From Escherichia phage HMD-9: a stretch of DNA of 64,000 bases. A model generated the notes under the pieces. The model did no database searches. It saw nothing but the letters and a program-made list of their open reading frames with translations, and was not told the DNA's origin. Where the stretch lies: sequence record PV287714.1; one strand, 5' to 3'. Below, piece after piece: positions 7,343 to 57,633 of this stretch; positions within the stretch are counted from its first letter, which is position 1, and each line of letters starts with the position of its first letter. The position numbers and the translations under genes are program-made.

Positions 7343-8851
7343 ATGGATATTAAAGTACATTTTCACGACTTCAGTCATGTACGCATCGATTGTGAAGAGA
7401 GCACGTTCCACGAATTAAGAGATTTCTTTTCGTTTGAGGCCGATGGATATAGGTTTAATCCTCGCTTCAGATATGGCAACTGGGATGGACGAATCCGTCT
7501 TTTAGATTATAATCGCCTTCTTCCATTCGGCTTAGTCGGGCAAATTAAAAAGTTCTGTGATAACTTTGGCTATAAAGCTTGGATTGACCCACAGATTAAC
7601 GAAAAAGAAGAATTATCAAGAAAAGATTTTGATGAATGGCTTTCTAAATTAGAAATCTATTCAGGAAATAAAAGAATTGAACCGCATTGGTATCAAAAAG
7701 ATGCAGTGTTCGAAGGATTAGTTAATCGTCGTAGAATTCTTAATCTTCCAACATCCGCAGGTAAATCCTTAATTCAAGCTTTGCTTGCTCGTTATTATTT
7801 GGAAAATTATGAAGGTAAAATTCTTATCATTGTTCCAACAACTGCTCTGACAACTCAGATGGCTGATGACTTTGTTGACTATCGTTTATTCAGTCATGCA
7901 ATGATAAAGAAAATTGGCGGTGGAGCATCAAAAGATGATAAATATAAAAATGATGCACCAGTCGTTGTTGGTACATGGCAAACTGTAGTAAAACAGCCAA
8001 AAGAATGGTTCTCACAGTTTGGAATGATGATGAATGATGAATGCCATCTTGCTACAGGAAAAAGTATTTCATCTATCATATCAGGTTTAAATAACTGCAT
8101 GTTTAAATTTGGTTTGTCCGGTTCATTGCGTGATGGCAAAGCTAATATCATGCAGTATGTTGGAATGTTTGGTGAAATATTTAAGCCAGTAACGACTTCT
8201 AAATTAATGGAAGATGGACAAGTAACTGAGTTAAAAATTAATAGTATTTTTCTTCGCTATCCCGATGAGTTCACTACTAAATTAAAGGGAAAAACTTACC
8301 AAGAAGAAATAAAAATTATTACTGGACTCAGTAAAAGAAATAAATGGATCGCTAAATTAGCTATTAAGCTTGCGCAAAAAGATGAAAACGCTTTTGTCAT
8401 GTTTAAACACGTATCACACGGTAAAGCTATTTTCGATTTAATTAAAAATGAATACGATAAAGTTTATTACGTATCAGGGGAAGTTGATACCGAAACACGC
8501 AACGTAATGAAAACCTTAGCTGAAAACGGTAAAGGAATAATTATAGTAGCTAGTTATGGTGTATTTTCTACTGGTATTTCAGTTAAAAATCTGCATCACG
8601 TTGTTTTAGCACACGGTGTTAAATCTAAAATTATTGTATTGCAAACAATAGGTCGCGTATTACGTAAGCATGGTTCTAAAACAATCGCAACGGTCTGGGA
8701 CCTCATAGATGATTGCGGTGTTAAGCCAAAATCTGCTAATACGAAAAAGAAATATGTTCATTTGAACTATCTTTTAAAACACGGCATTGATCGTATTCAG
8801 CGCTACGCAGATGAAAAATTTAATTACGTAATGAAAACAGTTAATTTATAA
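7343..8851 (+). CDS. uvsW: UvsW RNA-DNA/DNA-DNA helicase
   Basis: 502 aa; Walker A LPTSAGKS and DECH helicase motifs. Confidence 0.93.
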   Translation: MDIKVHFHDFSHVRIDCEESTFHELRDFFSFEADGYRFNPRFRYGNWDGRIRLLDYNRLLPFGLVGQIKKFCDNFGYKAWIDPQINEKEELSRKDFDEWLSKLEIYSGNKRIEPHWYQKDAVFEGLVNRRRILNLPTSAGKSLIQALLARYYLENYEGKILIIVPTTALTTQMADDFVDYRLFSHAMIKKIGGGASKDDKYKNDAPVVVGTWQTVVKQPKEWFSQFGMMMNDECHLATGKSISSIISGLNNCMFKFGLSGSLRDGKANIMQYVGMFGEIFKPVTTSKLMEDGQVTELKINSIFLRYPDEFTTKLKGKTYQEEIKIITGLSKRNKWIAKLAIKLAQKDENAFVMFKHVSHGKAIFDLIKNEYDKVYYVSGEVDTETRNVMKTLAENGKGIIIVASYGVFSTGISVKNLHHVVLAHGVKSKIIVLQTIGRVLRKHGSKTIATVWDLIDDCGVKPKSANTKKKYVHLNYLLKHGIDRIQRYADEKFNYVMKTVNL

Positions 8852-8863
8852 GGGCTTCGGCCC
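8852..8863 (+). other. UUCG-tetraloop stem-loop between uvsW and uvsW.1
   Basis: GGGC-TTCG-GCCC directly after uvsW stop and before SD GGAG. Confidence 0.35.
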
Positions 8864-8876
8864 TTTGGAGAAAAAG

Positions 8877-10064: not shown

Positions 10065-10463
10065 TTATACTCTGTTACTGGAAGCCAGTTGTAGTTTTAT
10101 CTGTTCAATATCATCAGGGTTATCGATGACCGAAAAGCGTATTTCTACTATCAGAGTATAATCATCATAAACCGGTATTACATTAACTGCTAATTTATCA
10201 ATACGTGGCTCGTAGTTTCTTACTGCGCTTTCAATGTTACGCTCAACAGTATCAGCAGTAAGAGGAGTCATATTCTCAAAAAGCTGGTCAGATAAATCGC
10301 ATCCAAATTCTGGGTCAAATGGTCTCGACCCTTTTCTGGTTGTAATAATTCCTAAAAGACTATTTTTAATTGACCTTAATCCAAGGGATCTAGAAACATC
10401 TTTGTCCCAATCCATTTTCATTTCTGGGTCAATGTCAGAATAAAGCTTATTAATATTTGCCAT
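10065..10463 (-). CDS. 25: baseplate wedge subunit gp25
   Basis: 132 aa, position. Confidence 0.92.
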   Translation of the reverse strand: MANINKLYSDIDPEMKMDWDKDVSRSLGLRSIKNSLLGIITTRKGSRPFDPEFGCDLSDQLFENMTPLTADTVERNIESAVRNYEPRIDKLAVNVIPVYDDYTLIVEIRFSVIDNPDDIEQIKLQLASSNRV

Positions 10464-11089
10464 TACAATAGCTCAAAGAATTCTTTGAGTCCTCTTATTA
10501 CATGAGCGTGAGATTTTCCACACTCTGGACATTTAATTGGAACAGCCAAATAAACAGTAGGCTTTAAAAGCATATCTTTTATAGCTACAATATCTGACTC
10601 TGTGATGATAGAATATAAATCTTCCAACTCTTTTTCATTCAAGTCTTCAATTGGAATGCTTTCACCGTTAGCATGAATTGTTTCTATACATGATACTATC
10701 ATGTGGGCTATATTTTTATCATCAAAAATTTTAGGGTAATGGAACTTAATTTTAATGTCGCCCAGTGTATACCAGAGGTCTTCTGGTGCATCTATTTGTG
10801 TATGTAATAGATTTATATGGGTTGGTATTTCAGTTCCACAAGTGCACTTCCAGGAGTTTTCGTGATTAACTTCTCCAAGAGAATGCGCCCATAAATGAAT
10901 CAACAGTAGTTCTGATTCTTGGCGGTTTAAATCTTTTGCATTTGTGCATTCTTTGATTAGCTTTTTAACGTTCTCTTCTACTGAACCGTTCTTTTTAGCA
11001 GTAATAAGTTCTAGATATTCTTTAAGAGTAAATGCGCGACAGTTGATTATTTTAGAACCAACTCTCACATCAAATTTGTATTCATACAT
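10463..11089 (-). CDS. 26: baseplate hub subunit gp26
   Basis: 208 aa, position. Confidence 0.9.
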
Positions 11090-24941: not shown

Positions 24942-25028
24942 TTTATTCTCCTTTGTTTGTGTAAGATAATACTATCACAAAGGAACTATACTGTAAACAA
25001 CTTTATGCAATCTTTGGAAAATAAAAAA

Positions 25029-25046
25029 GGACTCCCGAAGGAGTCC
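25029..25046 (-). terminator. rho-independent terminator
   Basis: GGACTCC-CGAA-GGAGTCC then TTTTTTAT on minus strand. Confidence 0.5.
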
Positions 25047-25051
25047 TCAAC

Positions 25052-31290: not shown

Positions 31291-32877
<1,587 letters not shown>

Positions 32878-32884
32878 AATAAAA

Positions 32885-32900
32885 TGGGCCTTGCGGCCCA
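32885..32900 (-). terminator. hairpin between nrdB stop and denA start (terminator and split Shine-Dalgarno element)
   Basis: TGGGCC-GCAA-GGCCCA followed by TTTTATT; AAGGAG lies 5' of the hairpin. Confidence 0.45.
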
Positions 32901-32904
32901 CTCC

Positions 32905-34083
32905 TTAAAAGTATTTTTTAAAACTCATCATAACTTTATCATCAACATCATTATCAATCTGTGCTACAAGATAAGATGACAGTTCTACTTCTTGCGGTGC
33001 AGATTGAACATTATCAGAATTAAGATATTCACGAATCCAAGGATACGGATGTTTAACCGGAGCATCGGTAATTGGACATGGAAGACCACACTGTTTCATA
33101 CGAGATACAGTTAAGTAATCAATAAAGCTCCACATGCTATTTGTATTTAATCCAGGAACATCGCCATCTTTAAATAAATGAACTGCCCAATCTTTTTCTT
33201 GGCGGTTAACTTCCATGAAAATATCAACTGCTTCTTGTTCACACTCTTGAGCAATTTTAACCCATTCATCGCCATCAGTACCGGATTGAAGTTGACGAAT
33301 AATATATTGAGTGCCTTTAAGGTGAAGCTGCTCATCACGAGCAATGAACTTCATAATCTTGGCATTACCTTCCATGATTTCCATGTTTTTGTGGAAGTTA
33401 AATGTACAGGCGAAAGATACATAAAAACGAATAGCTTCCAATGCGTTGATTACATGAAGGCAGAGGTAAAGAGATTTCATTAGCGCTCGTTTAGCTTCGG
33501 CTTCTTGTTTAATAGCTCGATTTAAACGAAAATCAGCATCAGGAGATTCTTTAGCTAGTTCTACGAATTCTTTAGCATTTTCCCATTCACGGGTCTTCTT
33601 AAGAACATCATCGTAGTAGCGACCAATGGACTCGGCACGTTTCATAATATCTTCATCTAATACAATCTCATCAAATACCTTTGACGGATCAGTATAAAGA
33701 TTTCGCATAATATGAGTGTATGAACGACTGTGAATAGTTTCGCTAAAAGTCCATGTAGCAACCCATGTATCAAGACTTGGGTCTGAAATTAACGACATAA
33801 GTACAGCAGACGGTGCACGACCCTGAATGCTATCTAGAAGTGATTGATACTTCAGGTTATTAGTAAAAATATCTTGCTGATACTGAGGAAGCTTGTTAAA
33901 TTGTGCAGCATCCATCATCAAGTTTACTTCTTCCGGACGCCAGAAAAATGACAAAGACTTCTCAATAAGTTCTTCAAATACTCGATGCCGTTGAATATCA
34001 TATCGAGCTAAACCCAATCCAGAACCAAAAAACATCGGCTCAGTCAAAATATTAACAGGTGATGTATTAAAAACAGTACTCAT
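32905..34083 (-). CDS. nrdB: ribonucleotide reductase beta subunit, uninterrupted
   Basis: 392 aa continuous ORF with diiron-site residues; no intron. Confidence 0.95.
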   Translation of the reverse strand: MSTVFNTSPVNILTEPMFFGSGLGLARYDIQRHRVFEELIEKSLSFFWRPEEVNLMMDAAQFNKLPQYQQDIFTNNLKYQSLLDSIQGRAPSAVLMSLISDPSLDTWVATWTFSETIHSRSYTHIMRNLYTDPSKVFDEIVLDEDIMKRAESIGRYYDDVLKKTREWENAKEFVELAKESPDADFRLNRAIKQEAEAKRALMKSLYLCLHVINALEAIRFYVSFACTFNFHKNMEIMEGNAKIMKFIARDEQLHLKGTQYIIRQLQSGTDGDEWVKIAQECEQEAVDIFMEVNRQEKDWAVHLFKDGDVPGLNTNSMWSFIDYLTVSRMKQCGLPCPITDAPVKHPYPWIREYLNSDNVQSAPQEVELSSYLVAQIDNDVDDKVMMSFKKYF

Positions 34084-34721
34084 TTAGAATCCTTAAATTT
34101 ACATTTATCATAATGCCATCTTAAAGCATTACCTTTATTAACTTTCTTTCCACAATGCGGACACGGCGGATACTCTGCACCTTGTTTAGTTCTCAAAGAA
34201 ATCAAATCGCGGGTTTCTTTAGTATGAGGAACATCTCTCGTTGGAGAGATTGTACCATACATTGGATTAAGCACGCCGACTTTAGCAGCAGCTATATTCT
34301 TTTTAGCTTCTTCAGTTTTAGGTTTTCTCATGCGAGCTAAATGCTCTTTAGTAAATTTCCTTCCTTTAAGAGCTCTACTTATCTTTTCTCTGGTTTCTAT
34401 AGAAACTTCACGTCCTATAGCAGCTCCAGACAAACGTCGTCTACCTAATTCGTATAGTTGAGAAGAAATTTTATATGAGCGATTTTTACCAGTCAAGCAC
34501 ATTAAACCAAAAGCTTTCTTTAATCCCGGGGTGTCATATATTTTACATAAAAGCCAATGCGCTATAAAATGCTCTCTACCTGTTAATTCAACTAAATTTT
34601 CTTTATCATCAGAACCTCCCATACATCTAGGGATTATATGATGAGTCTCTTTATATCCTAATAAAGGTTCCCGGGTTTGTGCCCGGGAAATTAAACTGTT
34701 ATATACGTTTTGATAATTCAT
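34080..34721 (-). CDS. mobE: HNH homing endonuclease MobE
   Basis: 213 aa; HNH motif HHIIPRCMGGSDDKENLVELTGREHFIAH; inserted between nrdA and nrdB with overlapping start/stop. Confidence 0.85.
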   Translation of the reverse strand: MNYQNVYNSLISRAQTREPLLGYKETHHIIPRCMGGSDDKENLVELTGREHFIAHWLLCKIYDTPGLKKAFGLMCLTGKNRSYKISSQLYELGRRRLSGAAIGREVSIETREKISRALKGRKFTKEHLARMRKPKTEEAKKNIAAAKVGVLNPMYGTISPTRDVPHTKETRDLISLRTKQGAEYPPCPHCGKKVNKGNALRWHYDKCKFKDSK

Positions 34722-40960: not shown

Positions 40961-40979
40961 GGGGACCTCTAGGGTCCCC
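40961..40979 (-). terminator. rho-independent terminator downstream of gene 32
   Basis: GGGGACC-CTAGA-GGTCCCC followed by TTTTTATTT on minus strand. Confidence 0.55.
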
Positions 40980-53278: not shown

Positions 53279-53310
53279 TAACAAGGGGCATTGCCCCTTT
53301 GGAGATAATT

Positions 53311-57576: not shown

Positions 57577-57607
57577 CGTTTTGTGAAAAAATTTTTGAAA
57601 TAAAAAA

Positions 57608-57627
57608 GGGAGAGCCTCGGCTCTCCC
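57608..57627 (-). terminator. rho-independent terminator upstream of motA promoter
   Basis: GGGAGAGCC..GGCTCTCCC followed by TTTTTTATTT on minus strand. Confidence 0.5.
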
Positions 57628-57633
57628 TAAAAT

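Follow-up and report, generated by a model that had tools for sequence, protein, structure and literature searches.

In phage T4, an intervening hairpin shortens the spacing between the Shine-Dalgarno (SD) sequence and the AUG of gene 38 (22 to 5 nt) and of gene 25 (27 to 11 nt) (PMC3014915). In both, the hairpin enhances initiation, and mutations that destabilize it reduce initiation (PMC3014915). The gene 25 split site is backed by mutations, lacZ fusions, and DMS probing (PMC3014915), and the split, or accommodated, site at the gene 26-25 junction goes back to Nivinskas et al. (1999) and Malys and Nivinskas (2009), as reviewed in PMC3014915. RNA structures that reduce initiation are also known from nuclease genes of the T4 family, namely I-TevI, segB, and Aeh1 mobE (PMC3014915). 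Close to the genes that concern us here, T4 mobE contains a weak internal intrinsic terminator at which 30%–50% termination was measured (Wilson and Edgell 2009; PMC2790892), and the T4 nrdB middle promoter is located inside the mobE coding region (PMC2790892). The hairpin-bridged T4 sites cited in the reviews consulted are those of genes 25 and 38; denA, the endonuclease II gene described below, would be the third.

The DNA analyzed is a 64,000-nt stretch of Escherichia phage HMD-9 (PV287714.1), referred to as the window, to which all positions refer; the element of interest is read on the minus strand. This segment is T4-like (Tequatrovirus), and the best megablast match is Escherichia phage W143 (99.0% identity over a 701-nt query). 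According to the ORF list, the minus strand carries nrdA, a mobE-like HNH gene, nrdB, denA, and rnlA. The window also holds one of the two precedents, gene 25, at 10463-10068 on the minus strand (tblastn, 99% identity), preceded by a UAAUAA stop, GAGG, 1 nt, an 18-nt tetraloop hairpin, an 8-nt tail, and the AUG. For gene 38, a tblastn search of the window with an approximate T4 gp38 query returned no homologue.

The sequence-only reading of this locus had placed an SD, then a hairpin, then the denA ATG, and this layout is confirmed on the minus strand by sequence and folding. The interval that it gave, 32878-32904, holds GGAG, the hairpin, and the tail; the full element spans 32875-32907 on the minus strand (Table 1).

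Table 1. Features of the nrdB-denA junction and other elements of the window discussed in the text
Feature	Position	Strand	Details and basis
nrdB CDS	32905..34083	-	single ORF, 392 aa; annotated as ribonucleotide reductase beta subunit in relatives
nrdB TAA stop	32907-32905	-	preceded by ...TAC TTT
Shine-Dalgarno AAGGAG of denA	32901..32906	-	best anti-SD duplex; first two bases are the last two of the nrdB stop
Hairpin UGGGCC-GCAA-GGCCCA	32885..32900	-	fold of -11.6 kcal/mol and covariation
U-rich tail UUUUAUU	32878..32884	-	spacer to the AUG as well as terminator-type U-tract
denA (endonuclease II, GIY-YIG)	32467..32877	-	136 aa from the ATG at 32877-32875
In-frame GTG inside the hairpin	32899..32901	-	T4 RefSeq denA start, 144 aa
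Candidate MotA-type middle promoter TGCTTCC-N13-TACTAT	32441..32466	-	inferred from a near match, with C instead of A at position 7
MotA-box/-10 motif inside the mobE-like ORF	34249..34273	-	pattern match
Gene 26-25 split ribosome site	10461..10494	-	GAGG-a-CUCAAAG AAUU CUUUGAG-cuauugua-AUG; sequence and fold
Hairpin then proximal SD	63657-63643	-	followed by UAAGGAAaauuAUG
Hairpin then proximal SD	62693-62676	-	followed by UAAGGAAaauuAUG
Hairpin then proximal SD	59598-59583	-	followed by GAGGAAaauAUG
Hairpin then proximal SD	24165-24150	-	followed by GAGGAAaauacuAUG
Hairpin then proximal SD	8850-8865	+	followed by GGAGaaaaagAUG
Hairpin then proximal SD	53283-53299	+	followed by GGAGauaauuAUG

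The hairpin has a stem of 6 bp, 5 of them G-C, that begins 4 nt past the nrdB TAA, and is made up of a 5′ arm (32900-32895), a GNRA tetraloop (32894-32891), and a 3′ arm (32890-32885). The last G of AAGGAG and the A of the AUG are separated by 23 nt, 16 in the hairpin and 7 in the tail. By itself, the 16-nt hairpin folds at the energy listed in Table 1 (z -2.9). The 29-nt stretch from SD to AUG folds at -16.4 kcal/mol (z -4.2) and a 66-nt context at -18 kcal/mol (z -3.0), and in both cases none of 200 shuffles was equally stable. An Rfam scan of 32300-33400 gave a single match, the L20_leader at 32870-32996 on the minus strand, at 24.3 bits (gathering score 58.7; E 0.032). This sub-threshold match was taken as chance.

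To look for a closer SD, the 45 nt 5′ of the denA ATG were scanned against the 3′ end of 16S rRNA by duplex energy. AAGGAG reaches -8.7 kcal/mol and sites nearer the ATG no better than -3.0 kcal/mol, in agreement with the claim that it is the only good SD of denA. At the -3.0 kcal/mol site, the loop contributes its last two bases and the 3′ arm its first two to a cryptic AAGG, which was rejected as a closer SD because it is weak, sequestered in the stem, and missing in relatives with a UUCG loop. The scan found no SD in the 7-nt tail. Thus, no closer functional SD is apparent in the 45 nt upstream, the best nearer site being weak and stem-paired. The GGAG at 32904-32901 is also the tetranucleotide that marks RegB endoribonuclease sites in the SD of early mRNAs, which makes it a candidate site at most; most relatives have GGAA, GGAU, GGAC, or GGU instead.

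The identity of the downstream gene is clear, as its product matches endonuclease II in PDB 2WSH with an E value of 5.5e-87, and the 2WSH construct begins MKEIATEY, which corresponds to the ATG at 32877. The T4 RefSeq record (NC_000866) annotates denA at 137517..137951 from a GTG that lies 24 nt upstream of the ATG. Were this the start, the hairpin would be coding and there would be no split SD. The 8-codon extension is indeed open in the T4 type, yet an in-frame start 8 codons upstream exists in only five of the 28 junction sequences described below (two further types have a TTG 2 codons upstream of the ATG), and in many the frame is closed sooner by a stop. In addition, the GTG overlaps the last SD base, leaving zero spacer; eight other annotated genomes use the ATG; and the crystallized enzyme (PDB 2WSH) and the residue numbering follow the 136-aa form. 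The ATG at 32877 is the conserved denA start in all relatives. We therefore give almost no credence to initiation at the GTG, and the RefSeq start is probably an over-extension. A gene caller that insists on a proximal SD will give denA a wrong start or a wrong score.

To place the junction in a wider context, IMG/VR and metagenome contigs were searched with DenA and a DenA alignment, and annotated phage records were added, giving 91 loci with a callable denA start (the window and T4 included). In 65 of the fetched loci nrdB directly precedes denA, and 63 of these 65 show the order stop/SD, GC stem with tetraloop, short tail, and ATG, in 28 distinct junction sequences. A stop that overlaps or abuts a purine-rich SD occurs in all 28 types, as TAAGGA, TAAAGGA, or TAGGAG, with a weaker TAAGAG in two (L032 and L033, in which the SD is reduced to AAGAG(AGGG)). 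The GGA/GAG purines past the nrdB stop are non-coding yet conserved. The SD is separated by 0-3 nt from a GC stem of 4-7 bp, and a tail of 6-10 nt that lacks an SD connects the stem to the ATG. Most types have a tetraloop of UUCG and the T4 type one of GCAA or GUAA; UUUG and UUAG are seen occasionally, and in one type the loop is 5 nt long. Among named phages, the layout is also found in eight, belonging to Mosig-, Gelderland-, Gapriver-, Kanagawa-, Jiaoda-, Moon-, Winkler-, and Bragavirus, so that nine genera carry it if the window's own Tequatrovirus is counted. The distant DenA homologues of RB49 and of Aeromonas and Klebsiella phages are encoded without nrdB-denA adjacency and are uninformative on the junction, except as a contrast.

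Covariation was evaluated on a loop-centered alignment of 24 distinct sequences, with shuffles and registers slid by 1-3 columns as controls. Overall, 90.5% of the alignment cells are paired, and compensatory double changes occur in five of the seven stem pairs (26 cells). The covariation score of 0.442 compares with 0.187 ± 0.031 for shuffles (none of 500 reached 0.442) and at most 0.27 for slid registers. Because different stem sequences recur with compensatory changes, the hairpin is under selection, and the junction hairpin is a selected RNA structure.

The spacing across the hairpin is similarly constrained. Counted from the GG of the SD, the AUG is 23-29 nt away in the raw sequence of the 28 junction types, with a median of 25. 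When the hairpin is subtracted, the distance becomes 6-14 nt, with a median of 9 and most values at 8-11, which equals the distance given by a canonical AAGGAGGU SD with a spacer of 5-7 nt. In the window, the looped-out spacing of denA is 7 nt. The tails of the relatives, 6-10 nt long, contain an SD in no case, and their best anti-SD duplex is -2.1 kcal/mol. U makes up 66% and A 17% of these tails, compared with 48% A and 27% T for the 7 nt that precede SD-led starts of the window.

Other hairpins of the window serve as a comparison. A pure terminator or stability hairpin leaves the position of the SD unconstrained, and the gene's own SD normally lies downstream from it. In the window, a proximal SD follows every other GC hairpin located shortly upstream of a start codon (six cases are listed in Table 1), and the exceptions without one are denA and, alongside it, gene 25. 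Tetraloop hairpins of the C(UUCG)G and GNRA kinds in T4 intercistronic regions are reportedly known from work by Tuerk and colleagues in 1988. The denA hairpin belongs to the same structural class (most relatives have C(UUCG)G and the T4 type has GCAA or GUAA), but such hairpins elsewhere in the window precede a proximal SD, whereas the denA SD is on the 5′ side of its hairpin. The denA gene of RB49 (Krischvirus) offers another contrast. Here, too, a GC hairpin, closed by GAAA, and a U-tract precede denA. However, the gene before denA is not nrdB, and a 26-nt stretch with a canonical proximal SD, GAGGAAAGGA, follows the hairpin. The RB49 region (L039:1430-1500) thus reads UAAGGUG, GAAA-loop hairpin, U-tract, proximal SD, and AUG, which is the conventional terminator-then-SD order. 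This layout could be intermediate or ancestral relative to the split site.

The resemblance to the gene 25 site is close. Both junctions are intercistronic and show the order stop, SD, 0-1 nt, 16-18 nt tetraloop hairpin, SD-less tail of 7-8 nt, and AUG; both are conserved among T-even relatives; and both occur in the window (10461-10494 and 32875-32907). They differ in the stem, which at denA is rich in GC, has a GNRA or UUCG loop, and folds at -11.6 kcal/mol, whereas at gene 25 it is rich in AU, the whole region of 37 nt folding at -9.3 kcal/mol. Also unlike gene 25, the denA SD overlaps the stop, the denA tail is a U-tract, and the element is terminator-like as well. Conservation is deeper at denA, with nine genera, one of them (Bragavirus) outside Tevenvirinae, and the covariation is much clearer. 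The gene 25 site was validated by experiment, whereas that of denA is predicted from the sequence. As for gene 38, a distal SD is likewise brought near by a hairpin, and the raw spacing of 22 nt is nearly the same as the 23 nt of denA.

Thus, denA has every feature by which a split site is recognized at the sequence level: a distal SD, an intervening stem-loop, restored spacing, the lack of a proximal SD, and covariation. The split-SD interpretation of denA is well supported by the covariation, the conserved effective spacing, the missing proximal SD, and the identity of design with the gene 25 site. Under this interpretation, AAGGAG, at 23 nt from the AUG, would be too distant to act on linear RNA, for which about 15 nt is the limit. 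Once folded, the 16-nt GC hairpin would loop out of the 30S subunit, so that the 7 nt of UUUUAUU would be the effective spacer and the SD and AUG could be engaged together. Ribosomes would then initiate at denA via the looped-out hairpin. The T4-type hairpin with its U-tract would probably also act as a partial intrinsic terminator or 3′ stabilizer of nrdB transcripts, in which case denA would be made from read-through RNA only. Taken as a whole, a hairpin-bridged initiation region whose T4-type hairpin probably doubles as a partial terminator or 3′ stabilizer is the account that we hold to be probable, if by no means assured. The split SD had already been proposed from the letters of the window, and that proposal has gained considerably from the distal SD, the selected hairpin, the restoration of spacing in every lineage, the absence of a proximal SD, and the match to the gene 26-25 site.

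In a search of the accessible literature, which did not reach key older T4 sources, neither the initiation region of denA nor transcript ends past nrdB were found to be described; the proposed denA split site is newly described, or at least not findably published. The relatives provide a natural series of stems, loops, and tails with which to study how the 30S subunit makes room for a helix that is looped out between SD and P site.

Two nrdB-denA loci that depart from the layout, L027 (1440-1510) and L088 (1410-1480), belong to unrelated lineages and have neither hairpin nor SD; instead, the nrdB TGA overlaps the denA ATG (ATGA). The closest DenA relative of L027, L025, keeps the hairpin, so the loss in L027 may be recent. 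Because denA has an ATGA overlap in these two lineages, termination-reinitiation coupling alone can express it, and the SD may matter less than assumed. These two lineages favor a different explanation of the whole junction, in which the hairpin is a mere intercistronic terminator or 3′-stability element of the C(UUCG)G or GNRA kind common in T4 and denA is re-initiated by ribosomes about 25 nt past the nrdB stop, the spacing across the hairpin being irrelevant. The AAGGAG at the stop would then be incidental, or would help to retain the 30S subunit. The frequency of GC tetraloop hairpins between genes of the window is compatible with this, as are the U-tract and positive terminator score of the T4-type element. 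Moreover, the 5′ arm, 4 nt further on, would lie beneath a ribosome positioned at the nrdB stop, and termination and refolding would thus be physically linked. However, re-initiation leaves unexplained why the SD is directly 5′ of the stem in 28 junction types, why the tail is 6-10 nt with a median effective spacing of 9 nt, and why a proximal SD is lacking, unlike at the window's other hairpins. Several lineages also keep the layout without a terminator-like tail (scores down to -43, see below). The nrdB stop and denA ATG are 27 nt apart in the window, and a stop/start overlap occurs in L027 and L088 only. We regard re-initiation without a role for the hairpin spacing as unlikely, though it merits some weight, and coupling may contribute in hairpin-bearing phages too.

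A further alternative is that the structure represses denA. An extended helix, in which GGAG pairs with UUUU and CUUUUA pairs with UGAAAG outside it, would hide both SD and AUG and keep a toxic nuclease low or structure-gated, to be opened by, for example, the ribosome terminating on nrdB. The minimum free energy fold of the 66-nt context does pair the SD and the UG of the AUG, and a 10-bp extended helix accounts for 73% of the ensemble of the 29-nt element. In the T4 type, the SD is unpaired with a probability of 0.16-0.21, which would oppose its use, and the structures of I-TevI, segB, and Aeh1 mobE may be counted as support. But 11 of 24 sequences have a non-canonical seventh pair, the extension is without covariation, and accessibility of the SD and AUG differs widely between lineages. 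Opening the extra G.U and A-U pairs would cost about 4.8 kcal/mol, as against -8.7 kcal/mol gained by SD-anti-SD pairing. Masking of the SD by the U-tract is rejected as a conserved function, given that the extension does not covary, and repression by the extended helix is in our opinion very unlikely. The suggestion in the sequence-only reading that the arrangement keeps endonuclease II expression low gains some backing from the masking predicted in the T4 type but is not upheld as stated: the gene 25 and 38 hairpins enhance initiation, and the GGAG-masking extension of the T4 type is not conserved.

The possible role of the split-site hairpin in termination was evaluated with an approximate discriminant d of the d'Aubenton-Carafa type (1990). 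Next to the T4-type hairpin, on its 3′ side, is UUUUAUUA, with 6 U in 8 nt, and d is +24.7. For scale, d is +36 to +41 for the three strongest terminator-like elements of the window and negative for hairpins with a proximal SD. Among the junction types, d is positive in 16 of 28 only; in Mosigvirus (-43) and Kanagawavirus (-30) the SD-hairpin-AUG geometry is kept and the tail is not terminator-like. The GenBank record of KAW1E185 labels the homologous hairpin "putative terminator" (a computational label). A terminator scan of the window did not list the denA hairpin, perhaps because the U run is consumed by a stem extension that tolerates G-T pairs. Several other lineages were checked, and there denA and rnlA overlap by stop and ATG; termination in them must therefore be weak or leaky, given that a strong terminator would silence rnlA too. 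The claim that the hairpin is the nrdB terminator is plausible for the T4 type, where the UUUUAUU tract, the d of +24.7, and the KAW1E185 label speak for it, as do the U-rich tails of relatives and the candidate promoter before rnlA described below, and it is limited by the 16 of 28 types and by the denA/rnlA overlap elsewhere. Transcription would, on this sequence evidence, stop only partly at the denA hairpin. We conclude that what is conserved is the function as a split ribosome site, with partial termination a plausible second function that varies among lineages and is strongest in the T4 type. Of the hairpin-bridged sites considered here, only that of denA has a terminator-like hairpin.

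Three strong terminator-like hairpins of the window are at 57607-57628, 40961-40979, and 25028-25047, all on the minus strand. Two of the three share a near-identical tail, UUUUU(U)AUUUCAAAAAUUUU, and may thus belong to a repeated terminator/promoter module.

The terminator inside T4 mobE can be compared with the denA hairpin. Both are in the same operon region, and both consist of a short GC hairpin with a loop of 4-6 nt and a short U-tract; the mobE element attenuates transcription without halting it, as the denA hairpin is predicted to do. The mobE terminator is within a coding region and does not position an SD, and the denA U-tract is the better one (d of +24.7 vs. -33 for the mobE internal terminator hairpin). 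A homologous hairpin is found near the 5′ end of the mobE-like ORF of the window, which matches the place of the published terminator in T4, at 34668-34689 on the minus strand, as UUCCCGGG-CACAAA-CCCGGGAA followed by CCUUUAUU.

With regard to promoters, the MotA-box/-10 motif inside the mobE-like ORF (Table 1) is the likely source of nrdB-denA transcripts, judging from the pattern match and from its position, which is that reported for the nrdB middle promoter of T4. The denA-rnlA spacer, absent in the other lineages checked, is 52 nt in this phage and holds the near-consensus candidate MotA promoter listed in Table 1, immediately past the denA stop and upstream of rnlA. If that promoter is real, denA would be the only gene in this phage that depends on read-through of the hairpin.

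Termination and initiation could also be joined more tightly, in that the 33-nt element might be a ribosome-gated terminator fused to a split site. While a ribosome occupied the nrdB stop, 4 nt before the stem, the terminator hairpin could not form behind RNA polymerase, and only translated nrdB messages would reach denA. Once the ribosome departs, the hairpin would refold and offer the stop-overlapping SD to the AUG for immediate re-engagement. Translation of nrdB would in this way gate denA and fix a low DenA:NrdB ratio. We consider such gating distinctly unlikely.

Two observations concern the neighboring genes. The gap between nrdA and nrdB is occupied by one 213-aa HNH ORF (34080-34721 on the minus strand) that overlaps both gene ends. 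At this position T4 has mobE (426 nt) and a separate nrdB.1, and T4 may carry in split form the gene that is intact here as the 213-aa ORF. In addition, T4 nrdB is in two pieces, with a group I intron that carries I-TevIII between them. Here, nrdB is an uninterrupted ORF (32905-34083 on the minus strand), and the nrdB intron is therefore absent from HMD-9.
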